A model generated the notes under the pieces. That model did no database searches and had not been told where the DNA came from. It worked only from the letters and a program-made list of their open reading frames with translations. The position numbers and the translations under genes are program-made. Of a stretch of 64,000 nucleotides of DNA, positions 25,625 to 36,928 are shown piece after piece (the stretch's first letter is position 1; every line of letters starts with the position of its first letter). The stretch comes from Alphaproteobacteria bacterium (lineage in GTDB: Bacteria > Pseudomonadota > Alphaproteobacteria > RF32 > CAG-239): the NCBI GenBank assembly GCA_045644765.1, contig JAZRHM010000033.1:4790-68789 (forward strand), written 5' to 3'.

Positions 25625-26344
25625 GTGGAAAAATTTATACGAACAATCAGCACTGTCATTACATTTGTTTTATTTTATGTAATTGCATCTTATGTATATC
25701 TTTCAAGCAAAGGTTTTGTGTACAAAAACGGCACTTTTTCTTTGGTAAAAGAAGTTAAAGCCGCTTCCAGAAGTAACGAATTTGCTTATCAGATAGATAG
25801 TAATATTGCTATAAACTTTAAGGATGATAAAGCTATGGGAGATACAAAAGCTCCTCTTACATTATATGAATTTTCTTCTTTGGGATGCTCTCATTGTGCA
25901 GATTTTCACCTTAACATACTTCCGAAATTAAAAGATGATTTCATATCTAATGGTAAGCTGAGGGTAGTTTTTGTAAACTTTCCTTTAGATCAAAAATCTA
26001 TGAAAGGAGCTATGTTGTCAGAATGCTTATCATCTGAAAAAAGAGAACAATTTTTAAATACAGTATTCTTAAAACAAAGAGAATGGATGTTATCTTTCAA
26101 ACCTGAAGATATTTTTGCAAAATATGCCACAGATGATACCTTCACAAAAGAAGATGCGTCAAAATGTATGTCTGATGATTTATTAGCACAAAATATTATT
26201 GCTGATAGACAAGAAGCAATTGATAAACTCAAAGTACAAGGTACACCGGCTTTCTTATTTAGTTCAGGTGGCGTAAATGAAATCATTTATGGGGTACCTA
26301 ATTATGAACTATTAAAAACCTACATTGAAAACAGATTGTTATAA
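25625..26344 (+). CDS. DsbA-family thiol-disulfide oxidoreductase
   Basis: N-terminal TM, MGDTKAPLTLYEFSSLGCSHCADFH, cis-Pro GTP; GTG start after SD AGGAG. Confidence 0.9.
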   Translation: MEKFIRTISTVITFVLFYVIASYVYLSSKGFVYKNGTFSLVKEVKAASRSNEFAYQIDSNIAINFKDDKAMGDTKAPLTLYEFSSLGCSHCADFHLNILPKLKDDFISNGKLRVVFVNFPLDQKSMKGAMLSECLSSEKREQFLNTVFLKQREWMLSFKPEDIFAKYATDDTFTKEDASKCMSDDLLAQNIIADRQEAIDKLKVQGTPAFLFSSGGVNEIIYGVPNYELLKTYIENRLL

Positions 26345-26357
26345 TTATACAAAAGAT

Positions 26358-26663
26358 ATGATTAAAAAACCGGATGACATAAAAAATCTTGATAAAAAAA
26401 TAGCTGCCTTCAAAAAAGCAGAGCAAATAAAACTATCAGAGCCTAAAAATGATCCCGAATACTCTTCAGCAGCAGCCGGTTTCCAAATAAGTACCGAGTT
26501 ATTAGCCGGTGTCATAATTGGAGCGGCCATAGGATATGTTTTTGATAAATTGTTTAATACTACACCTTGGTTATTAGCTCTTTTTACAATTTTTGGTGGA
26601 GCGGCCGGTTTATTAAACATTTATAAAACATTTAAAGCTGAAAATGGAAGCAATGAGGAGTAA
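26358..26663 (+). CDS. atpI: ATP synthase protein I (AtpZ/AtpI family)
   Basis: ELLAGVIIGAAIGYVFDKLFNTTPW...GGAAGLLNI; first gene of F0 operon. Confidence 0.9.
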   Translation: MIKKPDDIKNLDKKIAAFKKAEQIKLSEPKNDPEYSSAAAGFQISTELLAGVIIGAAIGYVFDKLFNTTPWLLALFTIFGGAAGLLNIYKTFKAENGSNEE

Positions 26664-26668
26664 AGTTT

Positions 26669-27391
26669 ATGGCAAGTCCTTTAGAGCAATTTACTGTCAA
26701 ACCGCTAATTCCGATTACAATCGGCAATTATGATATATCTTTTACAAATTCAGCATTGTTCATGGTAATAACCATACTGAGCATCGTTATATTATTTGCT
26801 TTCTGCCTAAGAAAAAGAAGTATTATTCCCACTATATCACAGTCAATACCGGAAACCACATACGATTTTATCCACAATTTGCTAAAAAACAGCGCAGGAA
26901 AAGATGGTTTAAAATATTTTTCGTTTATTTTCAGTATATTCTTGTTTATTGCTTTCGGTAATTTTTTAGGTCTTTTCCCTTACAGTTTTACATTTACTTC
27001 ACATTTAGCTGCTGTAGGGTGCTTATCGATATTGGCCCTTATATTTAACATTATTGTCGGAATAAAAGTAAAAAAATGGGGATATTTAAGAACTTTTTTA
27101 CCCAAAGGGATTCCCGTAGCATTAGCTCCGCTTGTTATCCCTATTGAGGCGATTTCATTATTGTCGAAACCGTTTAGTTTAACCGTACGCTTAGTTGCCA
27201 ACATGACAGTTGGGCATATAATGTTAAAAATTTTAGCAGGTTTTATTGTTGCATTAGGACTTGGTGGTATTGTTCCGCTCTTGTTTGATGCTTGTATTAT
27301 TATTTTTGAAATGTTTATTGCAGTTTTGCAAGCATACATATATACTGTATTAAGCTGTATATATTTAAGTGATGCCATTCATCATCACTGA
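26669..27391 (+). CDS. atpB: F0 ATP synthase subunit a
   Basis: SPLEQF, SFTNSALFM, SLTVRLVANMTVGH (essential Arg), LQAYIY. Confidence 0.96.
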   Translation: MASPLEQFTVKPLIPITIGNYDISFTNSALFMVITILSIVILFAFCLRKRSIIPTISQSIPETTYDFIHNLLKNSAGKDGLKYFSFIFSIFLFIAFGNFLGLFPYSFTFTSHLAAVGCLSILALIFNIIVGIKVKKWGYLRTFLPKGIPVALAPLVIPIEAISLLSKPFSLTVRLVANMTVGHIMLKILAGFIVALGLGGIVPLLFDACIIIFEMFIAVLQAYIYTVLSCIYLSDAIHHH

Positions 27392-27423
27392 TAACTTAAA
27401 TTTTGATAAAGAAAGGAAATATT

Positions 27424-27645
27424 ATGGAACCGATAGCTTATATCTCTGCTGCAATTTGTGCTGTATCTATGACTGTTGCTGCCTGGGGCGTTACCAAACT
27501 TTGGACAACAATGATTGAAACGGTTGGTCGCAATCCGCAAGTAAAAAAAGAAGTTGATATTTATGGTTGGGCAGGTTTTGCCGCAATTGAAGCTATTGCA
27601 TTGTATGCATTAGTTGTTGCTTTGGTGATTTTGACCGGCAAATAA
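27424..27645 (+). CDS. atpE: F0 ATP synthase subunit c (highly divergent)
   Basis: 73 aa two-TM hairpin, RNP loop, conserved Glu in FAAIEAIALY; position after atpB. Confidence 0.9.
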   Translation: MEPIAYISAAICAVSMTVAAWGVTKLWTTMIETVGRNPQVKKEVDIYGWAGFAAIEAIALYALVVALVILTGK

Positions 27646-27647
27646 AC

Positions 27648-28127
27648 ATGCCTCAACTTGAAACATCTACATATCTTTCACAAATATTCTGGCTTATAAC
27701 CACATTTTTAAGCCTGTGGTTTTTTATGGCATGGTTTATTATACCTAAAATTGAAGATGTTATGGAGCAGCGCCGACGTAAAATTGATGATTTTGTGCAA
27801 AAAGCCGAAAGATTCAACAAACAGGCGCTTATCTCTTTAAATAAATATGAAAAAGCTTTAGAAAAAGCGAAAGAAGAAGCTCAAAACACAATAGCAAACA
27901 ATAAAAAGGAATTAGAGGATTGTGTCTTAGCAAGACGAACTCAAGTTGAGGAATTATTAAATAAAAAAATTGCCGATACTGAAATTATGCTTGCAAAAGA
28001 AAAACAAGAAACTCTAATTGCTATAGATCAACTTTCCCTAACATTGGCAAATGACATTTTAGCGAAACTAGATGTTCAAAACATTAATTATGACGTCCTC
28101 AATAAATTCACCGGAGATAATAAATAA
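27648..28127 (+). CDS. atpF2: F0 ATP synthase subunit b'
   Basis: MPQLE...SQIFWL N-terminus, TM followed by coiled coil. Confidence 0.9.
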   Translation: MPQLETSTYLSQIFWLITTFLSLWFFMAWFIIPKIEDVMEQRRRKIDDFVQKAERFNKQALISLNKYEKALEKAKEEAQNTIANNKKELEDCVLARRTQVEELLNKKIADTEIMLAKEKQETLIAIDQLSLTLANDILAKLDVQNINYDVLNKFTGDNK

Positions 28128-28759
28128 TGGATATAGAAACACAAGAACATTTATCTTCTTCCGAATTTATTGACAATGCTCAAAATGCTGTCATAGAGGC
28201 TGTGGACAATGTTTCAGAAATGATATCAGAAACAACCACTTTATCCGAATTTCAAGACACTCATCATAGCAAAATTTTTTATCAAAGCCCTGAATTTTGG
28301 GTTGGAATGGCTTTTGTTTTAGTTGTTGTTTTTTTAGCCAAACCTATAAGTAAAATAGCAAAAAATTTTTTTACTAAAAGGCGTGATGATATCATTAATC
28401 GCATTAACGAAGCTGAAAAACTGAGAGATGAAGCACAAGCACTATTATCCCAATATGAACGTAAATTTTTACATGCAAAAGATGAAGCTAAAAGCATTTT
28501 AGATAAAGCAACCGCTGAAATTGAAAACATAACAGAATATGAATTAAATAAAATAGAAAAAGAATTAGATAATAAACAAAAAGAAGTTGATAGAAACATT
28601 GAAGCATCAATAGAGAATATTAAAACAGAATTAAGCACACTTGCTGTCTCAAAAGCGCTCTGTATGGTAAATAAATATATACAAAACAATTTTGATAAAA
28701 AACAGCATGAAACACTTATTGATAAATCAATAAAAAATATTCTAAACACTTTAAAATAA
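28127..28759 (+). CDS. atpF: F0 ATP synthase subunit b with N-terminal extension
   Basis: PEFWVGMAFVLVV TM, RINEAEKLRDEAQ coiled coil, LIDKSI. Confidence 0.88.
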   Translation: MDIETQEHLSSSEFIDNAQNAVIEAVDNVSEMISETTTLSEFQDTHHSKIFYQSPEFWVGMAFVLVVVFLAKPISKIAKNFFTKRRDDIINRINEAEKLRDEAQALLSQYERKFLHAKDEAKSILDKATAEIENITEYELNKIEKELDNKQKEVDRNIEASIENIKTELSTLAVSKALCMVNKYIQNNFDKKQHETLIDKSIKNILNTLK

Positions 28760-28774
28760 GAATCATTTACATGA

Positions 28775-29500
28775 TTATATTTTGTAAACTCTTGCCACAG
28801 TTAAAAAATCGACTGATTTTGCACCGGCTTTAATTAAAACCTTAGCACACTCTTTTAGAGTAGAACCGGTTGTTTGAACATCATCAATTAAAACAACTCT
28901 TTTATCCTTTATATTTTCAGGATATTTTACCATAAAAGCATCTTTAATATTCTTGATTCGGGCTTTTCCCGAATAGCTTACTTGGGGCTTAGTTGATTTA
29001 TGTTTAACCAAAGATTTAAAATCTGTTTCTATTAACACTAATTTACTGAGTTCTGTTGCCAATAAAGCTGATTGATTATATCTTCTTTTTACAAGCCTTT
29101 TATAATGTAACGGAACCGGTATCAAAACATCAGCACCTGCTGAAAATATATCACTACCGGCCATTTTCAACCACTTAGCGAAAACTTTGGCATTTTCAGT
29201 TTTATCCATGAATTTAAATGCTAAAATCATATTTTTTGATAAAGTTTCATATTTAATTGCCGAGCGAGAATATCTGAAAAGCTTTTTAGTATCGTTCACG
29301 CACATCGGGCAGAGCAAGTTTTTATTGACACCCATACAGTCAGGTAACGGTAAGCCACAACACTTACAATGAGGATCTGAAATAAATGTTACTTCATTAA
29401 AACAATCGGCACATAAACCATCTTCATCAGCCAAAATTTTTCCACAATTTATACATCGGGGAGGAAGAAAAAAATTTATAATATCTTTTAGTATACTCAT
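28775..29500 (-). CDS. comF: ComF-family protein (double Zn ribbon + PRTase)
   Basis: PPRCINC...CADC...CKCC...CPMC; PVPLH, RRYNQS, LIDDVQTTGST. Confidence 0.92.
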   Translation of the reverse strand: MSILKDIINFFLPPRCINCGKILADEDGLCADCFNEVTFISDPHCKCCGLPLPDCMGVNKNLLCPMCVNDTKKLFRYSRSAIKYETLSKNMILAFKFMDKTENAKVFAKWLKMAGSDIFSAGADVLIPVPLHYKRLVKRRYNQSALLATELSKLVLIETDFKSLVKHKSTKPQVSYSGKARIKNIKDAFMVKYPENIKDKRVVLIDDVQTTGSTLKECAKVLIKAGAKSVDFLTVARVYKI

Positions 29501-30366
29501 TTCAAACTTTGCAAAACATTATGTATTTGATTAATATTATCAACCACTTCTATTCCGGCCTTTTTCACAATTTCTTTTTTATCATTTGCTGTCAGTTTTC
29601 CTCCGGTAATAATATCTCCGGCATATCCCATCTTATCTCTCATTAAATGAGTTGAACCGGCAATATATCCTATAATAGGTTTTTTATTTTTCAGACTTGC
29701 ATAGTATTTTGCAGCCTCTTCTTCATACATACTCCCTTGCTGTCCTATCATCAGTATAGCTTGTGTATTATCATCTTCATGAAAAAGGCGTATTATTTCT
29801 ACAAAATCTGTCCCAACAATCATATCATCACCAAGACCGACAACAGTCGATTGCCCTTTACCTGCTCGTATTGTTTCTAAAACAGCCTCATATGTCAAAG
29901 TCGATGAACGGGATACTATTCCAATATTACCCTTCTTATGTATATTTTCCGGAAAAATACCTAAGCGAACTTCTTCAGGAGTAATTATACCAGGTGTATT
30001 CGGACCTATAAGCAATGTTTTTGAGCCTTTTAACATTGCTTTAATTTCTATCATATCTTTAATTGGAACGCCGGAAGCAATTGTGACAACAGTTTCCAAC
30101 TCAGCTTCTATAGCTTCTCTTACAGCATCTTTCACAAAAGGTGCCGGCACAAACATTACAGAAGATGTTGCACCTTTTACTTCTACTGCTTCTTTTACCG
30201 TATTAAACACATCTACACCTAAATGCTTCAGTCCTCCACGGTTCGGAGAAACTCCCCCAACGATATTAGTGCCATATGCTAACATTTTTTGTGTGTGAAA
30301 AGAAGCTTGAGTTCCTGTTATGCCTTGCACTAAAACTTTTGTGTTTTTATCCGCCAATATAGACAT
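29497..30366 (-). CDS. sucD: Succinyl-CoA ligase alpha subunit homologue, catalytic His replaced by Tyr
   Basis: MSILADKNTKVLVQGITG, YGTNIVGGV, IGPNTPGI, TLTYEAV; but KMGYAGD instead of RMGHAGA. Confidence 0.9.
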   Translation of the reverse strand: MSILADKNTKVLVQGITGTQASFHTQKMLAYGTNIVGGVSPNRGGLKHLGVDVFNTVKEAVEVKGATSSVMFVPAPFVKDAVREAIEAELETVVTIASGVPIKDMIEIKAMLKGSKTLLIGPNTPGIITPEEVRLGIFPENIHKKGNIGIVSRSSTLTYEAVLETIRAGKGQSTVVGLGDDMIVGTDFVEIIRLFHEDDNTQAILMIGQQGSMYEEEAAKYYASLKNKKPIIGYIAGSTHLMRDKMGYAGDIITGGKLTANDKKEIVKKAGIEVVDNINQIHNVLQSLK

Positions 30367-31568
30367 CAGTTACTTTCCTCCATCGCCCGTAAAAGTTTTT
30401 TAACACCATCTTCCATAGTATCAGCCATCAATATAGGCAAACCCGAACTTTGTAAAATTTCAGTTGCTTCTTCTTTATTTGTTCCTTCAAAACGAACCAC
30501 TAACGGAACATTCAATCCTACTTCGGATGCCGCTGCAATTATACCATCTGCCACTAAATTACAGCGCAAAAAACCGCCTAAGATATTAATTAAAACACCT
30601 TCAACTTTAGGATTGGTCATAATGATTTTAATACCTGCCGAGATTTTATCCTTATCTACACCGCCTTTAACATTTAAAAAACAATCCATTTTTTCATCAG
30701 TGTTAACAAGAATATCTCTAATTGATAGAGCTATACCTTCTCCGTTTACGATACAACCTATACTGCCATCATCAAATGATCTGTATTGAAAGCCATATTT
30801 TGACGCTCTTAATACTCTATCCTCATCTTCATAATCATCATGAAGTTTTGCTATATCTTTGTGACGGTATAATGCATTATCATCAAAAGATATTTTAGCA
30901 TCCAACGCAATAAAATTTCCTTTTTTACTAATTCCGATCGGATTTATTTCTATCATTATAGCGTCTAGTTCTATAAAAGCTTTATACAAACCGACAACAA
31001 ATTTTTTTAATTTTTTTGCAAAAGATGTTTCAATTTTTAGAAACTTAAGAATTGCATTTATTTGCTCGGAACTGATTTTTTCATTTATATCTAGATTAAT
31101 GCTTAAAATTTTCTCAGAATCGGCAATCGCTAAATCTAAAATATTTTCTGTAGCATCAGCTACTAACAATTTCACACAAGGAACCATCCTATCAATTACA
31201 AAACTCATATAAAAAGTTTGTTTTACAACGACGTGTTCTTCGATATAGACTTTACTTACTGATTTTCCTTTCAACCCCGTTTGATTAGTAACAAGTGTTG
31301 ATCCCAACATTTTTTCAGCTTCAGCAAAAACATCTTTTCTTCCGGCCACATATCTGATACCACCCTTTTTTCCGGCTCTTTTTTCAATAAATTTCCCATC
31401 AGCTCTTGCTCCTGATTGAATCTGAGCTTTTAGCATCCACGGACCTTTTGAAGAGATGTTAACTGCCACTCTTTTAGCTTCAGCCGGAGTATAAGCAATA
31501 CCTCCTTTAGGTATTTCTATCCCATAACGGCTTAATATTTGTTTTGCCTGATACTCATGTATATTCAT
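30366..31568 (-). CDS. sucC: Succinyl-CoA ligase beta subunit homologue, degenerate motifs
   Basis: MNIHEYQAK, LVTNQTG, EINPI, LDAKISFDDNALYRH, VPLVVRFEGTN; glycine-rich motifs altered. Confidence 0.9.
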   Translation of the reverse strand: MNIHEYQAKQILSRYGIEIPKGGIAYTPAEAKRVAVNISSKGPWMLKAQIQSGARADGKFIEKRAGKKGGIRYVAGRKDVFAEAEKMLGSTLVTNQTGLKGKSVSKVYIEEHVVVKQTFYMSFVIDRMVPCVKLLVADATENILDLAIADSEKILSINLDINEKISSEQINAILKFLKIETSFAKKLKKFVVGLYKAFIELDAIMIEINPIGISKKGNFIALDAKISFDDNALYRHKDIAKLHDDYEDEDRVLRASKYGFQYRSFDDGSIGCIVNGEGIALSIRDILVNTDEKMDCFLNVKGGVDKDKISAGIKIIMTNPKVEGVLINILGGFLRCNLVADGIIAAASEVGLNVPLVVRFEGTNKEEATEILQSSGLPILMADTMEDGVKKLLRAMEESN

Positions 31569-31581
31569 GGTTAGTCACTTT

Positions 31582-31983
31582 TTAAGTATTATTAGCATAG
31601 AAACGAATTTTATCTACCATAGACATCATCCCGTTCCGACGACTTGGGGTCAAGTGTTCTCCTAACCCTAGTTTAACAAAAAAATCCTCCACTTCAATTT
31701 CTTTTATTTCTTTTACAGATTTATTTGCATAAACAGATAATAATACTGATATAATTCCCTTAACCATTATTGCATCGCTATCGGCATAAAAATTTAATTT
31801 ACCATCATGATAAACAGGAACCAACCATACTTGCGACTGACAACCGCTAACCTTAAATTCATCAGTTTTATACTTTTCATCTAATGGGGGAAGCTGTTCC
31901 CCCAGTTCAATCAAATATTGGTACTTTTCTTCCCAATCATCTAATATTGAAAAATTTTCTATCAAAGTATTAATATCTTGCAT
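31582..31983 (-). CDS. sufE: Fe-S cluster assembly sulfur acceptor SufE
   Basis: DDWEEKYQYLIELG, VSGCQSQVW, DSDAIMVKG, LTPSRRNG. Confidence 0.95.
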   Translation of the reverse strand: MQDINTLIENFSILDDWEEKYQYLIELGEQLPPLDEKYKTDEFKVSGCQSQVWLVPVYHDGKLNFYADSDAIMVKGIISVLLSVYANKSVKEIKEIEVEDFFVKLGLGEHLTPSRRNGMMSMVDKIRFYANNT

Positions 31984-31992
31984 ATATATCTC

Positions 31993-32412
31993 CTAGAACA
32001 TATCAAGCATTGCCTTAGCTTCTTCACTTAAACGATCTGTTGTCCAAGCAGGTTCCCAAACAACCTTCACTTCAACTTTACCCGTTCCTTCAATTTTTGC
32101 AACCGCATTTGCCACTTCTTGCGGCAATATACCGGCAACGGGACACGTTGGAGCAGTTAAGGTCATATCAATTGCTATATTGCCATTTTCCATTTGATTA
32201 ATTTTATATATAAGCCCCATATCATACACATTTATCATAATTTCAGGATCGGAAACTGTTTTGATAGCTTCAACAATATCATACATGGTAGCTTTTGCTT
32301 GAGATACCTCTAATTCATTTCCTGCATAAGCTTTATAATCGGAAGTTATATCTTCCTCAACACTCATTGCTTGAAGCAAAAGGGCCTCTTTTTCATCAAT
32401 ATTTTCTGACAT
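31993..32412 (-). CDS. sufT: SUF system Fe-S assembly protein (DUF59/SufT)
   Basis: DPEI...YDMGLIY, MTLTAPTCPVAG, VWEPAW. Confidence 0.9.
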   Translation of the reverse strand: MSENIDEKEALLLQAMSVEEDITSDYKAYAGNELEVSQAKATMYDIVEAIKTVSDPEIMINVYDMGLIYKINQMENGNIAIDMTLTAPTCPVAGILPQEVANAVAKIEGTGKVEVKVVWEPAWTTDRLSEEAKAMLDMF

Positions 32413-32465
32413 ATATTCCTCTTCTTATTCTTATCTTCAGTATTTCTACACTAAAAATAACAATC

Positions 32466-33677
32466 TTAAAAGAATTTCATAGCCTTATTAACCGCTTTTA
32501 CAAAAGCATCTATATCACTTTTAGAAGTATATAATCCAAATGATGCTCTTGCAACAGAATTATATCCCATACGGTTTACTAATGGCTCAGCACAATGATG
32601 GCCTATTCTGATGCTTACTCCTTCCTTATTTAATACATAAGCCAAATCTTGCGGATGAATGTTTCCGACTTGGAAAGAAAAGACACCGCCTTTATTTTTC
32701 ACCTTCCCTATATGTTCAAAATTTCTAATATCAGAAGTTGCATCAAACATATATTTTACAAGCTCTTCTTCATACCTTTCAATATTTTCCATTCCTAAGT
32801 TTTGAATATATTTAACAGATTCAGCTAAGCCTATTGCCTGCACAATCGCAGGTGTTCCCGCTTCAAAACGAGCCGGTGGTAATGCAAAAGTGGTTTCTTG
32901 ATAAGTTACTTTATCGACCATATCGCCTCCGGTTTGATATGGTATCATCTCATTTAACAGATTATATTTACCGAATAAAACGCCTATTCCTGTCGGCCCA
33001 TAAAGTTTATGACCGGAAAAAGCCAAAAAATCACAATCTATATCTTTAACATCAATTTTTTTATGAACAGCAAACTGACAAGCATCTATCAAAACTTTTG
33101 CCCCGACATTATGTGCTGCTTTAACAATGTTATTTACCGGAAATATGGTTCCCAATACATTAGACATTGCCGTGATGGCTACTAATTTTGTTTTTGGAGA
33201 CAGTTTTTGTAAAAATTGTTCTTCCGAATAACTTCCATCATTTTCAATTTTAAATACTACTAGTTTGCATTGCTTTTTATGACAAATCATTTGCCATGGT
33301 ACCAAATTTGCATGATGTTCTGCTTCAGAAATTAATATCTCATCATCTTTGTTCAGATTTTTTTCTGCCCACGATGATGCAACTAAATTTATTGCTTCTG
33401 TTGCATTTCTGGTAAACACTATTTCATTTTTATCAGCACTTATAAATTCTGCCACACAATGACGGGCATTTTCATATTCAGTGGTTATTGTTTCCGCCAA
33501 ATCATACATACTTCTGTGAACATTAGCATAAGAATTTTGATAAATATTTACAATCTTATCGATCATACATTTGGGCTTTTGTGAAGACGCAGCAGAATCG
33601 AGATAAATAATTGGTCTGTTATTTATCCGGTTCTTAAAGATAGGAAAATCTTCTCTTATTTTACTGACGTCATACAT
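32466..33677 (-). CDS. sufS: Cysteine desulfurase SufS
   Basis: YLDSAASSQKP, EHHAN, FSGHK, RFEAGTP, RIGHHCA. Confidence 0.95.
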   Translation of the reverse strand: MYDVSKIREDFPIFKNRINNRPIIYLDSAASSQKPKCMIDKIVNIYQNSYANVHRSMYDLAETITTEYENARHCVAEFISADKNEIVFTRNATEAINLVASSWAEKNLNKDDEILISEAEHHANLVPWQMICHKKQCKLVVFKIENDGSYSEEQFLQKLSPKTKLVAITAMSNVLGTIFPVNNIVKAAHNVGAKVLIDACQFAVHKKIDVKDIDCDFLAFSGHKLYGPTGIGVLFGKYNLLNEMIPYQTGGDMVDKVTYQETTFALPPARFEAGTPAIVQAIGLAESVKYIQNLGMENIERYEEELVKYMFDATSDIRNFEHIGKVKNKGGVFSFQVGNIHPQDLAYVLNKEGVSIRIGHHCAEPLVNRMGYNSVARASFGLYTSKSDIDAFVKAVNKAMKFF

Positions 33678-33736
33678 ATCTACCTCTCTGTCTTAATTTA
33701 GCAAGCATTTAAAAAAAATCAATATAAACCGACACG

Positions 33737-35752
33737 CTAATTCCACAACCTTTTACCTATATCGGAACGTATAGTTTTTATCTCTGGTTTGCCATTTTTT
33801 ATATAAGCCACTCCTCCTCCGTCTTTCATCGTATCGATGAGCTTATCCTCAATCCATATTTTTCCTTCTTTATCCCATGAAATTATATTTTTATAAACAC
33901 ACATATTTTCATCACAACTTAAATCAAGCCATTGTTTATCAACTAAATCACCATTATAAATTTCTTTCAACTTTTGCGGATTTGAAACATCTGTACTTGC
34001 TGTTTTTTCAAGCCACATTTGTTTAATGAAAGCATTTGATTTTACAGGCATTATAATTAGATTAGAAAAGTTATCTTTTACGGCAATATTTTTTCCGGCT
34101 GCATCATAAATCATATCAGGTACAGTGGCGGTAAAAATACTCAGAGCTCCAACAATTATAGGAAAAGCTCCCCACAAACGCCATTTTTTTTGCCATAAAC
34201 AAAGCCACAAACCTCCCCACACAATCAACATCAATCCCCAAAATGGCATAGATAGCACCTGATATCCGGCTTGAGGCAAATTTGAAACATATGCCGTAAT
34301 TTCATTCACAGTTTTTATTCCGTATCCTACAATTTTAAGTGGCCATACATAAAGTCCGAATGGCATTAAAAACAGGGCCAGTAAAACAAACGGCATTATA
34401 ACGAGTCCGATAACCGGACCTGCTAAAAAATTGCCTAACGTAGTATAAATGGCTATTCTGTTAAAATGGTATATTGCAAATGGAAGTGTTGCCATACTTG
34501 CTACAAAATCTGATATCAAAAGACCGCCAATGTAAGCAATGATGATCTTCAAAATACTTTTTCCCTTAAAAAATTTATGTATGGAAGAAGCATATCTTTC
34601 ATAAAAAGCAATTAACACCAATACTGCAGCAAAAGACATTTGAAAACTGGCACTGATAAGAGCATATGGCGAAATACTTAAAACGATAAACGCAGCAATA
34701 CTCAGCATTCTTATAGAAATTGCCTTACGTGAAAATAAAACCCCTAACAAAACCACAAAAGTCATTATAAAAGCTCTTTGAGCAGGTATTTCGGCCCCAG
34801 ATATCAAAAGATAAATAAAACTCATAAAAATAGCAAAAAGAGCAGCAACTTTTTTTGAATCATATCTTAAAGCAAGGGCTGGTACAAGACTTACACATAG
34901 GCGAATCGCAAAAAATGCCATAGCTGCAATCATCGACATATGCAAGCCTGAAATTGACAAGAAATGAGCAAGACCTGAATTTTGGTAAGATTTATTCAAG
35001 TCTTGAGAAATTCCGTCTCTATCTCCTGCTAATATAGCTGCGGTGATAGCAGCTTCATCTACCGGTAACTCTGCATATATATTTTTTACCACATCTTTTC
35101 TTGCCTTATTTGTTAATTGTACAAGTTTATCAAAAAATGATTGATTTTGTAAGCATGATATTTGGTAGGCTGTACTATTTGCATAACCGATAGCGCTTAT
35201 ACCTTCGTAAAAATGTTTACGATTAAATTGATACGTATTGGGCAAAACCGGCAACATAGGAGGCATCAATGTTGCTATCATTTCCACACAATCACCTTCG
35301 TTTAGATTTGTTTCTTTTGAAGAAAGAGTTATTCTGTATATACCTTTTTTAGGATTATTAAAGTCTGCTGCATCATCAATCAACAACCTAACTTTTCCTT
35401 TACTGTTGCTATCTATTTTTATAATGCGACCTTGTAGATAAGTAATTTCCTTTTGACTTTTCGGCTGCTCTATAAATTTTGATTTATATATACTTCTTAC
35501 TTGAATGTTGGCAAAGCCAAGGGCAATAATTAACAAAGATACTATAACAAAAAATTTTACCGGATTATATCTCCAAATATATAAAAGAAACAACAATATC
35601 TCAACAATAAATATTGTAAGCAAAGATGAGGGTTCCGAATATGGTAAAAAGTATAATCCGATACCCAAACCGAATAAAACCGGTAACCACAGAATAAATC
35701 TTTCTCTTTCAGCGAAAAAATTCTCCCTTAATTTGTTTAGGAAAGTTCTCAA
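33737..35752 (-). CDS. comEC: ComEC/Rec2 DNA uptake channel
   Basis: SGLAHFLSISGLH, AQRAFIM, SFQMSFAAV; multi-TM. Confidence 0.93.
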   Translation of the reverse strand: MRTFLNKLRENFFAERERFILWLPVLFGLGIGLYFLPYSEPSSLLTIFIVEILLFLLYIWRYNPVKFFVIVSLLIIALGFANIQVRSIYKSKFIEQPKSQKEITYLQGRIIKIDSNSKGKVRLLIDDAADFNNPKKGIYRITLSSKETNLNEGDCVEMIATLMPPMLPVLPNTYQFNRKHFYEGISAIGYANSTAYQISCLQNQSFFDKLVQLTNKARKDVVKNIYAELPVDEAAITAAILAGDRDGISQDLNKSYQNSGLAHFLSISGLHMSMIAAMAFFAIRLCVSLVPALALRYDSKKVAALFAIFMSFIYLLISGAEIPAQRAFIMTFVVLLGVLFSRKAISIRMLSIAAFIVLSISPYALISASFQMSFAAVLVLIAFYERYASSIHKFFKGKSILKIIIAYIGGLLISDFVASMATLPFAIYHFNRIAIYTTLGNFLAGPVIGLVIMPFVLLALFLMPFGLYVWPLKIVGYGIKTVNEITAYVSNLPQAGYQVLSMPFWGLMLIVWGGLWLCLWQKKWRLWGAFPIIVGALSIFTATVPDMIYDAAGKNIAVKDNFSNLIIMPVKSNAFIKQMWLEKTASTDVSNPQKLKEIYNGDLVDKQWLDLSCDENMCVYKNIISWDKEGKIWIEDKLIDTMKDGGGVAYIKNGKPEIKTIRSDIGKRLWN

Positions 35753-35770
35753 TGTATTCTCCGGTAAAAA

Positions 35771-36928
35771 TTATTTATGTTTTTTCTTTTTTATCAAGTC
35801 AAATACAATATCACATACATTAGAGCTAGGAGTTTGTTCTCCCAAACCTAAAGCCTCTTTTACCTTAATAAACCCTTCTTTTTGACGTTCATACAGAGAT
35901 TGTTTTTTTAACAATTCTTCAACATTGTACAGAATTTTATCTTCATTACAATTTTCCTGTAACAGCTCCGGAATAATTTCTCTTCCAAGTAAAATGTTGC
36001 TTAAATTAACAAATTGAATTTTTAAGAATCGGCGAGCCAACCATGCTGACATCGCTGACAATTTATAAGCTATAATATGTGGAACATCAACTATAGCCAA
36101 TTCTAAAGCGACTGTTCCTGAGGCTGCAATTGCAACTTCTGATGCGCAAAAAGCATCATGTCTATCACTTTCATTATTTACAATGATAATAGGTAACTTA
36201 CTATCTTCAACCATAGCCTTTACCCTATCTTCAACCGTATGAACCGTAGGGATCACAAAACAAAATTCAGGGTGTTTTTCTTTTAATTTTCGTACAACAT
36301 TTAAAAATACGGGCAACAATCTGCTAACTTCCGTATGCCTTGACCCCGGCAACACTGCCATAATACGCGCATTTTCATCAATATTATAACGAACTCTGAA
36401 ATCATTACCGTTAGCCCATAAAACGCTACTTTCAATTACCGGATGACCGACGAATGTCGTATCCAAACCATGTGGAGTAAAATATTTTGGTTCATAGGGG
36501 AAAAGAGTAAGTAAATGATCAATATATTTGTGCATAGTTTTTGCACGTTTTTTCTTCCATGCCCAAACTTGTGGTGCCACATAATGAACTTGCGGAATAT
36601 TTAATTTTTTACGGCGTAACAATTTATGAATACGTGATGAAAAACTCCAACTGTCAATTGTTATAACCACATCAGGTTTTATTTTTTCAATTTCTGCTAT
36701 GGTTTGTGAAAATCTTTTAAGAATCTTAGGCAAAGACGGTAAAACTTCAAACAATCCCATAACCGAAAGCTCTGATATATCAAATAAAGACTTCAATCCT
36801 TCTCTTTGCATTGTTTCGCCGCCAATACCAAAAAATTCGACTTCCGGATTTTTTGCCAGCATAGCTCGCATTAGACGCGAACCCAATAAATCGCCCGATG
36901 GCTCTCCCGCAATTAAATATATCTTCAT
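35771..36928 (-). CDS. lpxB: Lipid-A-disaccharide synthase
   Basis: IAGEPSGDLLG, HYVAPQVWAW, FVGHP, LPGSR, ASGTVALE. Confidence 0.96.
   Translation of the reverse strand: MKIYLIAGEPSGDLLGSRLMRAMLAKNPEVEFFGIGGETMQREGLKSLFDISELSVMGLFEVLPSLPKILKRFSQTIAEIEKIKPDVVITIDSWSFSSRIHKLLRRKKLNIPQVHYVAPQVWAWKKKRAKTMHKYIDHLLTLFPYEPKYFTPHGLDTTFVGHPVIESSVLWANGNDFRVRYNIDENARIMAVLPGSRHTEVSRLLPVFLNVVRKLKEKHPEFCFVIPTVHTVEDRVKAMVEDSKLPIIIVNNESDRHDAFCASEVAIAASGTVALELAIVDVPHIIAYKLSAMSAWLARRFLKIQFVNLSNILLGREIIPELLQENCNEDKILYNVEELLKKQSLYERQKEGFIKVKEALGLGEQTPSSNVCDIVFDLIKKKKHK

Follow-up and report, generated by a model that had tools for sequence, protein, structure and literature searches.

Gene organization of the locus

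The window (the whole stretch of DNA analyzed, 64,000 nucleotides) contains, on the reverse strand, adjacent genes for homologs of both subunits of succinyl-CoA synthetase. The sucC' gene (30366..31568; open frame of 400 aa) encodes a beta-subunit homolog with an ATP-grasp and a CoA-ligase domain (ATP-grasp_2 and Ligase_CoA in Pfam), and sucD' (29497..30366; open frame of 289 aa) encodes an alpha-subunit homolog with a CoA-binding Rossmann and a CoA-ligase domain (CoA_binding and Ligase_CoA); that is, both subunit architectures of SucCD are present, side by side. The stop codon of sucC' and the start codon of sucD' overlap as TGATG, and the stop of sucD' overlaps, as ATGA, the start of a comF-family gene (28775..29500; open frame of 241 aa with DZR_2 and Pribosyltran domains according to Pfam). 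The integrity of the sucC' and sucD' frames and the latter overlap, both noted in the preliminary description, were confirmed in the DNA. Upstream of sucC', after a gap of 13 nt, lies sufE (31582..31983; PF02657, 1.4e-45), which encodes the sulfur acceptor of SufS, with an invariant Cys48 and an SGCQS motif that is invariant among relatives. It is preceded, on the same strand, by a DUF59 / FeS_assembly_P (SufT-like) gene detected with Pfam (31993..32412) and by the gene for a class-V aminotransferase, a cysteine desulfurase of the SufS type (32466..33677; Aminotran_5, 461 bits). A promoter and terminator scan of positions 28000-36500 was uninformative, with fewer promoter-like sites than in shuffled sequences and one weak terminator-like site, located inside comF.

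SucD' scores above the NCBIfam cut-offs for the alpha subunit (361.2 bits against 353.2 for TIGR01019, and 360.9 against 336 for a second alpha model), and SucC' falls just under both beta cut-offs (368.1 against 370 for NF001913 and 354.9 against 375.55 for TIGR01016); full-length SucC matches of the other genomes in the phylum sample reach 462-604 bits, compared with 354 for the window's pair. The comF product is under the cut-off of TIGR00201 (110.8 against 233.55 bits), which is reached by the ComF proteins of none of the 41 related genomes. The AF2 models of the SucC' and SucD' monomers predict confident folds (mean pLDDT of 87.2 and 85.6, respectively), with pLDDT of about 84-85 over residues 51-70 of SucC', the region of a lid insertion described below, and below 50 in the loop 239-253 of SucD'.

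Remodeling of the phosphohistidine site

Residues were compared with those of the E. coli chains 2nu8_A (alpha) and 1jkj_B (beta), which are matched over the full length (E = 1e-90 and 6e-76, respectively); beta residues are given in E. coli numbering, counted from the alignment to 1jkj_B. In succinyl-CoA synthetase, the phosphorylated residue is His246alpha, and Glu208alpha and Glu197beta stabilize the phosphohistidine at its two stations, as stated in excerpts of a published account (PMC10342173). The phosphorylatable His246alpha is absent from SucD': alignment and DNA reading place Tyr248 there, encoded by a TAT codon at 29623..29625 (reverse strand), and there is no other clade-invariant histidine near the swinging loop. 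The change of RMGHAGAII to KMGYAGDII reported in the preliminary description is thus borne out by the codons (aag atg gga tat gcc gga gat). Glu208alpha is replaced by Gln in the window's SucD' and by Q/K/R across the clade, Glu97alpha by D/Y/A/S, and Glu197beta is kept. For all residues but His246, Glu208 and Glu197, we assume the ligand roles established by structures of the E. coli and pig enzymes. The N-termini of the two phosphate-binding (power) helices consist of small residues, SGT in alpha and GAG in beta; here, they are altered to SST (G154S) and G[DE]G (A266D/E), respectively. According to the alignment to the E. coli chains, three new carboxylates, a Tyr and a Lys are located around the former phosphate pocket.

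The other differences listed earlier for alpha (IGEIGG to IGQQGS, SRSGTL to SRSSTL, GIGGD to GLGDD, ITEGIP to IASGVP, and GPNCPG to GPNTPG) and for beta (NGAGL to NGEGI, LDVGGG to LNVKGG, and FGGIVRCD to LGGFLRCN) were all recovered, as was the retention of the EINP and LDAK motifs of beta (alignment to 1jkj_B and clade rows). The supposed change of HAGGRGK to QSGARAD in beta holds for the substitutions H50Q, A51S and G53A; the rest reflects a 10-residue insertion between Arg54beta and Gly55beta, which maps by alignment to the Gly-rich lid of the ATP-grasp domain (SucC' residues 56-65; 31374..31403, reverse strand). This insertion is found in all 24 His-less SucC rows and in none of the 5 canonical rows of the same alignment. 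It is present also in G027, a relative whose SucD keeps the histidine and all canonical site-I motifs, so the insertion is not part of the dismantling.

A set of 77 His-bearing representatives shares 45 conserved alpha positions; of these, the His-less clade has kept 38 and changed 6, and it is intermediate at 1. The six changed positions (E97, G154, G179, E208, H246 and A249) all lie around the phosphohistidine site; the changes fixed in the clade include G179D and A249D, and the new alpha residues are Tyr, Asp, Asp and Ser. No conserved position in the N-terminal CoA-binding (Rossmann) domain is altered, in agreement with the earlier claim that this part of alpha is kept, the changes being confined to site I. 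In beta, 74 of the 155 conserved positions are kept, including K46, G52, R54, E99, E197, N199 and D213, and the Mg-ATP ligands are unaltered across the clade; the fixed changes are A266 to D/E, N285C, D288N, G290K, F319L, I322F and D326N, with Ala266, Asn285, Asp288, Gly290, Ile322 and Asp326 being the altered beta-side residues of site I. The replacement motifs show little or no variation of their own (SRSSTL, GLGDD, GPNTPG, the GYAGD loop, NG[DE]G, LNVKGG and RCN), which points to newly imposed rather than relaxed constraint. The window's pair carries all the clade markers, namely the six motifs other than the loop together with Tyr at 246alpha. Judging from these alignments, the remodeling is confined to one place, the phosphohistidine pocket (site I), in both subunits.

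Distribution, phylogeny and selection

Searching 41 genomes yielded 30 loci of relatives, in which the residue at 246alpha is Tyr (24), His (5) or Leu (1); among the nearest database clusters, 119 of 120 have Tyr. The His-less proteins are monophyletic (27 rows, SH-aLRT 99, stem length 0.42), and the same substitutions recur across the family (22 genera) and also in a sister family, with intact frames in every locus examined. The H-to-Y change and the accompanying substitutions are thus clade-wide, and their presence in dozens of independent assemblies argues that they reflect neither chance nor sequencing error. For unsaturated pairs (dS of 0.14-0.37), the dN/dS ratios are 0.057, 0.097 and 0.039 for sucD and 0.072, 0.070 and 0.038 for sucC, that is, well below 1 (0.04-0.10). 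In one genus, all 3 of 3 species have Leu at 246alpha, with intact genes and low dN. The argument, originally made from the window's sequence, that coordinated changes in two subunits speak against error or decay is therefore upheld, the changes being shared by the clade and under purifying selection.

For P0161, one of several other His-less SucD-like lineages (P0161, P0180, P0237 and others), a genomic search found 6 loci of relatives, all with His. A search of the ESM Atlas yielded only generic 'succinate--CoA ligase alpha' clusters. Neither a SufE nor a phosphoribosyltransferase domain was found in the best 120 proteins of 507-2000 aa, which is weak evidence with respect to fused forms; these longer homologs are canonical beta-alpha fusions or eukaryotic models, with at most 54% identity.

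The sufE-sucC'-sucD'-comF cassette

The sufE, sucC', sucD' and comF genes form one conserved unit. In 18 of 19 genera, sufE immediately precedes sucC'; comF immediately follows sucD' in 18 of 19 genera as well, and it lies downstream of sucD' in all 25 His-less loci. The sister family has the same gene order. The coupling to comF is as described previously, with the same overlap and with comF following sucD in nearly all genera; the tightest partner is the directly upstream sufE, which the preliminary description overlooked. The sufS-DUF59 pair keeps its place beside sufE in no more than 9 of the 19 genera. Of 61 family genomes, 60 have a SufE match and 60 a SucD match, the one without being the same in both cases; comparison of the two tables places both genes on a single contig in 55 of 60. 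In G017, the family genome without SucD, the same queries failed to find SufE, SufS and ComF; this loss of a block is indistinguishable from an assembly gap and so is unusable as a co-loss argument. In class-level genomes with canonical sucCD, sufE was found in 4 of 15, and sufE and comF are never near sucD.

Two exceptions to the gene order count against a partnership with SufE and ComF: in one genus (3 of 3 species), sufE is located elsewhere, with sucC'-sucD'-comF intact and constrained, and in one genome comF is not downstream of sucD'. A tblastn search of the window's own genome with the SufS protein matched only itself, and SufS and SufE are the sole copies found, so their adjacency to the pair could reflect the history of a housekeeping operon rather than shared function. 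The comEC gene is located upstream of sufS in this genus, the only one in which such adjacency was observed. Complex prediction for SucC', SucD' and SufE gave an ipSAE of 0.00 in both runs, which were performed without controls, and counts neither for nor against binding.

Genomic and metabolic context

In the host genome, rated 99.6% complete, a second canonical sucCD, sucA or an sdhA-type gene was not found, and the window's pair is the only sucCD copy. Similarly, each matching family genome has one sucD match, except for one fragmented assembly with two pieces. Citrate synthase and dapD were not found in the host genome either, so that no source or user of succinyl-CoA was detected among the genes sought (sucAB, sdh/frd and dapD). 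The sucA gene was found in none of the 25 family genomes and not in the one sister-family genome, compared with 12 of the 15 class-level genomes above the cut-off. As far as the gene content indicates, the hosts are small-genome gut Alphaproteobacteria that comprise a whole order without a Krebs cycle (2-oxoglutarate dehydrogenase not found). Searches of the host genome found neither gshB nor coaBC, and none of 26 genomes from the order yielded coaBC; the organism appears unable to synthesize its own glutathione or CoA. The DNA datasets listed for this sequence are labeled as animal gut, bovine or pig gut, or manure metagenomes.

Possible functions of the SucC'D' pair

Lacking a phosphoryl carrier to connect its ATP and CoA sites, the pair very probably cannot catalyze the succinyl-CoA synthetase reaction, and it probably does another job. 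Judging by the conserved residues, it is likely to have retained the binding of an adenine nucleotide and of CoA or a CoA-like nucleotide. The coordinated changes, their clade-wide sharing, purifying selection, the single copy and the coupling to comF argue that the pair is repurposed and not decaying; on this point the earlier interpretation stands. Its phospho-Tyr chemistry is unlikely as a general mechanism, and its reading of HAGGRGK and its neglect of sufE call for correction.

The best explanation as a whole, to which we would give somewhat less than an even chance, is a repurposed, non-phosphorylating CoA/nucleotide-binding module that would work with SufE and ComF. More specifically, we tentatively propose that the pair may act alongside ComF and the SufE sulfur relay as a partner that binds ligands without phosphorylation. 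Its working surface would be the rebuilt, acidic site I beside the CoA thiol pocket, and it could either tie sulfur delivery by SufS/SufE to CoA or energy status or hand on persulfide sulfur. Contact with SufE or ComF is suggested indirectly, by the gene neighborhood, which is a point against the partnership; a point against the binding module is that the invariant Mg-ATP ligands, including Glu197beta, and the new invariant polar residues of site I resemble a working active site. Should the SufE link prove functional, SucC'D' would add a new accessory factor to the SUF sulfur relay and offer a handle on how CoA-scavenging organisms relate sulfur trafficking to CoA or energy status.

The same features could instead signify a new enzyme, a rather unlikely alternative, in which site I would be another catalytic center acting on a CoA thiol or thioester without a phosphoenzyme, for example, an acyl-CoA hydrolase or transferase in which the new carboxylates take part, or a site that handles CoA persulfide or a metal, with the ATP-grasp domain as a nucleotide-dependent switch. 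The near-invariance of the replacement residues, the retention of the CoA-domain motifs and Mg-ATP ligands, and the three carboxylates, Tyr and Lys that surround the former phosphate pocket are all compatible with catalysis. However, the sequence assigns no chemistry, one genus tolerates Leu in place of the loop Tyr, and the variable replacements at Glu97alpha and Glu208alpha are unusual for a catalytic pocket. In a variant that we consider improbable, the former phosphate pocket, with its Tyr, three carboxylates, Ser/Thr and Lys by the CoA thiol site, would be a new active center operating with SufE, which might pass persulfide to or through CoA, or hold a cation, for instance iron, for SUF. 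If so, a new factor for the trafficking of sulfur or iron would have evolved from a Krebs-cycle enzyme. The setting of such a center would be anaerobic hosts in which genes for glutathione or CoA synthesis were not found.

Alternatively, the pair could be a structural or moonlighting partner of ComF, involved in DNA uptake or nucleotide handling, or have another non-sulfur role, the adjacency of sufE being an inherited accident. The overlap of the sucD' stop with the comF start, the invariable position of comF in the His-less loci, the persistence of sucC'-sucD'-comF in the genus where sufE has moved off, and comEC upstream of sufS are consistent with this possibility, which is nevertheless unlikely: the comEC adjacency is limited to this genus, sufE stays with sucC' even where sufS-DUF59 has moved off, and there is no SucD'-ComF fusion among the best 120 longer homologs (weak evidence).

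It is far less probable that the pair is still a synthetase of succinyl-CoA or another acyl-CoA, with phospho-Tyr in place of phospho-His as suggested in the preliminary description. Although the Tyr is nearly universal (119/120) within a conserved GYAGD loop, and Glu197beta and the Mg-ATP ligands are retained, the genes of the Leu genus are intact and constrained, which argues against phospho-Tyr chemistry as a general mechanism; furthermore, the phosphate-binding helix N-termini carry Ser and Asp/Glu, Glu208alpha is gone, and no source or sink of succinyl-CoA was found (sucA, sdhA-type gene, dapD). Decay of the pair into pseudogenes, a lesion of this strain alone or an error of assembly, to which only the SucC' scores just under the NCBIfam cut-offs lend any credence, is refuted by the intact frames in all loci examined, the same substitutions in the 22 family genera and the sister family, and the dN/dS of 0.04-0.10, and has a practically negligible probability.

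These genes are automatically annotated as 'succinate--CoA ligase', and metabolic reconstructions would therefore credit these gut Alphaproteobacteria with a step that they very likely cannot perform. A literature search on His-less succinyl-CoA synthetase found no paper.

Comparison with known systems

SucC'D' shares the domain order of the subunits with the ADP-forming SucCD of E. coli (PDB 2NU8, 1JKJ and 2SCU; NF001913/NF004230, TIGR01016/TIGR01019), along with the CoA-domain motifs, Glu197beta, Asn199beta and Asp213beta. Unlike E. coli SucCD, it has neither His246alpha nor Glu208alpha, carries the substitutions G154S, A266D/E, G179D, A249D, D288N and G290K and the lid insert, and is encoded between sufE and comF rather than in the mdh or sucAB neighborhood. 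The pair thus represents a natural experiment in the repurposing of a central two-subunit enzyme, with one pocket rewritten in both subunits and the remainder held, and the rebuilt pair has persisted throughout the history of an order.

The CoA_binding, Ligase_CoA and ATP-grasp domains are also shared with the superfamily of NDP-forming acyl-CoA synthetases and ATP-citrate lyase (ADP-forming acetyl-CoA synthetase, citryl-CoA synthetase and ACLY), families that are weaker matches of SucC' and SucD' in profile and structure-chain searches. To our knowledge, all characterized members of this superfamily use phosphohistidine; the SucC'D' clade, in contrast, has none.

In the CsdA-CsdE-TcdA(CsdL) system of E. 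coli, a SufS/SufE-like pair serves an ATP-dependent partner. By analogy, the cassette described here may be comparable, with a SufE-type sulfur acceptor encoded beside an ATP-binding protein outside the Fe-S scaffold, although the fold of the partner is unrelated and the link between SucC'D' and SufE is a proposed one.

Remodeling of the phosphohistidine pocket in SucC'D'

The His-less homologs of the succinyl-CoA synthetase beta and alpha subunits (hereinafter SucC' and SucD'; E. coli numbering unless stated otherwise) are encoded in a compact minus-strand array that consists of a ComEC-type gene (33737-35752), a SufS-type cysteine desulfurase gene (32466-33677), a DUF59/FeS_assembly_P gene (31993-32412), sufE (31582-31983), sucC (30366-31568), sucD (29497-30366) and a comF-family gene (28775-29500), with intergenic gaps of at most 59 nt or overlaps. 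The end of sufE is 13 nt from sucC, TGATG holds both the stop of sucC and the start of sucD, and the coupling of sucD to comF reported in the preliminary description was confirmed on the DNA, with the sucD stop and the comF start overlapping in ATGA. The genes of the ATP synthase Fo part (atpI, a, c, b, b'; 26325-28759, plus strand) form an operon that converges with comF, with 16 nt between the ends; this neighborhood is also present in another genus, and in the related genome G010 the Fo operon is co-directional and leads straight into sufS-DUF59-sufE-sucC'-sucD'-comF; the relatives' loci concerned are L051, L103 and L104.

Both proteins align over their full length with the solved E. coli chains (E = 1e-90 for alpha and 6e-76 for beta). 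Tyr248 of SucD' (TAT, 29623-29625) occupies the site of the phosphorylated His246alpha, and Glu208alpha is replaced by Gln; the roles of these two residues and of Glu197beta are as described in PMC10342173. The substitutions listed in the preliminary description are all present, among them SRSGTL to SRSSTL, GIGGD to GLGDD, ITEGIP to IASGVP and GPNCPG to GPNTPG in alpha, and NGAGL to NGEGI, LDVGGG to LNVKGG and FGGIVRCD to LGGFLRCN in beta. The HAGGRGK region is altered as well, but the actual changes are H50Q, A51S and G53A, along with 10 additional residues that separate Arg54beta from Gly55beta.

For the alpha subunit, 77 full-length His-bearing representatives from a library of all proteins define 45 positions with conservation of 90% or more, and these were compared with 119 sequences of the Tyr clade. 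The clade retains 38 of them, differs at six (Glu97, Gly154, Gly179, Glu208, His246 and Ala249) and is intermediate at one. A new near-invariant residue (Ser, Asp, Tyr, Asp) is found at four of the six, and the other two now vary, with D/Y/A/S in place of Glu97 and Q/K/R in place of Glu208; in the N-terminal CoA-binding domain, every kept position is intact. The beta subunit is more diverged, with 74 positions kept and 60 changed among the 155 that are conserved in 31 canonical Pseudomonadota sequences. The kept residues include Lys46, Gly52, Arg54, Glu99, Glu197, Asn199 and Asp213, which we take to form the Mg-nucleotide site; the roles assigned to the remaining residues follow those in the structures of the E. 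coli and pig enzymes. The fixed changes (A266D/E, N285C, D288N, G290K, F319L, I322F and D326N) map to the three C-terminal-domain loops facing the histidine. Thus, position by position, the phosphoryl/succinate pocket has been rewritten in both subunits and the two nucleotide-type pockets are untouched; at the level of sequence conservation, the remodeling is surgical.

Evolution of the His-less clade

SucD was found in 40 of the 41 related genomes. The 30 fetched loci encode Tyr (24), Leu (1) or His (5) at the phosphorylation site, and the five His loci all come from class-level genomes and retain every canonical motif. On the two points that the preliminary description proposed to check, the replacement is clade-wide, with Tyr in 119 of the 120 nearest database clusters, and the dN/dS ratios are well below 1 for the pairs with unsaturated dS (0.057, 0.097 and 0.039 for sucD; 0.072, 0.070 and 0.038 for sucC); the pairwise values for the neighboring comF are 0.064 and 0.059. 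A phylogeny of 82 SucD proteins places the His-less ones (26 Tyr, 1 Leu) in a single group (SH-aLRT 99) with a stem of 0.42 changes per site, nested among His-bearing sequences. Decay or a strain-specific lesion of sucC'D' is excluded by the Tyr in the relatives, the low dN/dS and the open frames in every locus examined.

At one sister-family locus (L096, G025:C105; 79% complete genome), the sucC' match is split into two pieces about 216 nt apart and comF likewise matches as two pieces, which could reflect an insertion, a frameshift or an assembly error. The sufE match in a genome of the same genus as the window (G003:C39:51496-51858) includes one in-frame TAG.

The phospho-tyrosine chemistry raised as one option in the preliminary description is unlikely: in one genus, each of the three species (G016, G054 and G068) carries Leu, in a GLAPE loop, with the remaining clade signatures kept, intact frames, and dN of 0.16-0.23 at saturated dS (omega of about 0.05-0.14).

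The class-level genome G027 encodes a SucD with His and all canonical motifs of the phosphohistidine pocket, together with a SucC that carries a 10-residue insert (HAEEREKGFFKEEKAGKGGG) at the same place in the Gly-rich lid of its ATP-grasp domain (L094, G027:C120:5500-9500). This pair may be an intermediate form; given that it combines the His with the insert, the insertion is either older than the His loss or independent of it.

The sufE-sucC'-sucD'-comF unit

Across 19 genomes from 19 genera, sufE immediately precedes sucC' in 18 genera and comF immediately follows sucD' in 18. The sufS-DUF59 pair adjoins sufE in only 9 of the 19 genera; in the rest, it is inverted, out of range or at a distance of 0.9-5.3 kb, and in three genera, an inserted Peptidase_C26/GATase (glutamine-amidotransferase) gene separates the DUF59 gene from sufE (L043:783-1655, L048:6475-7350 and L050:4897-5751). 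The sister family has the order DUF59-sufE-sucC'-sucD'-comF. SufE and SucD are each present in 60 of the 61 family genomes, and 55 of the 60 have the two genes on the same contig at a distance of about 1.2 kb; the other five comprise two fragmented assemblies and the three species of a single genus. The single genome that lacks both (G017, rated 100% complete) is also without SufS and ComF by the same queries, so that the whole block may be lost or may fall in an assembly gap. Among the class-level genomes, sufE was found in 4 of 15, and sufE and comF are far from sucD. The four-gene unit is therefore a derived trait of the order, and coincides with His loss and a lack of sucA.

A second ComF-like ORF (223 aa, 33% identical to ComF of the window) lies behind a helicase-like fragment on a 1572-base contig of the same genome (C32, 329-1000, plus strand) and may represent contamination or a mobile element. 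In two related Chloroflexota MAGs (L058 and L059), a canonical His-bearing sucCD has a comF-like gene on the other strand, about 2.2 kb upstream, probably by coincidence.

Metabolic context

The preliminary description left a second canonical pair, sucA and sdh to a genome search. The 1.47 Mb genome (rated 99.6% complete) encodes one sucD and one full sucC; neither 2-oxoglutarate dehydrogenase E1 (sucA) nor an SdhA/FrdA-type flavoprotein was found in it, and neither were citrate synthase and DapD. sucA was found in none of the 25 family genomes and not in the one sister-family genome searched; it exceeds the cut-off in 12 of the 15 class-level genomes, adjoining canonical sucD in the compared examples (G029, G035 and G038). 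In the class-level genomes G027 and G033, sucA was not found and His is kept, so loss of the cycle alone does not remove the His.

The window SufS is the only one found in the genome, and sufB and sufD are on another contig. Neither gshB nor coaBC was found in the genome; coaBC was detected in none of the 26 genomes of the order compared to 11 of the 15 class-level genomes, and coaD passed its cut-off in 0 of 26 compared to 14 of 15. With coaE found in 23 of the 25 family genomes, CoA synthesis looks truncated across the whole order, which probably salvages a late precursor, dephospho-CoA or similar.

Possible functions of SucC'D'

SucC'D' is a maintained, single-copy SucCD derivative that lacks the phosphoryl carrier and the residues supporting it; the pair forms one inherited unit with sufE and comF, in genomes without evident succinyl-CoA metabolism. 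We infer that it cannot be a succinyl-CoA synthetase; the retained residues suggest that it still binds CoA-like and adenine nucleotides. The mechanism we prefer, drawn from synteny and conservation, is that SucC'D' would act as a ligand-binding, non-phosphorylating partner to both ComF and the SufE relay, the rebuilt acidic pocket serving as its putative working surface. This mechanism is countered by the observations that SufS and SufE here are the housekeeping copies and that one genus moved sufE away, leaving sucC'D'-comF undisturbed. It is also countered by the invariance of the new residues in the phosphohistidine pocket and the retention of Glu197beta, which could equally point to a new enzyme. 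Fusions of SucD' with partner domains were not found among the best 120 proteins of 507-2000 aa.

No paper on a succinyl-CoA synthetase that lacks the histidine was retrieved by full-text literature search; the relatives appear in databases as 'succinate--CoA ligase subunit alpha' of uncultured Alphaproteobacteria. Outside the His-less clade, seven SucD-like cluster representatives (P0161, P0180, P0237, P0231, P0259, P0173 and P0219) also lack the His, with Phe, Leu, Tyr, Tyr, Leu, Asn and Ser, respectively, at the site. Their co-substitutions differ from those of the window's clade, three of the seven group with His-bearing sequences elsewhere in the SucD tree, and His is present in every one of the nearest species-genome relatives of P0161. 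The His may have been lost more than once among SucD-like proteins.
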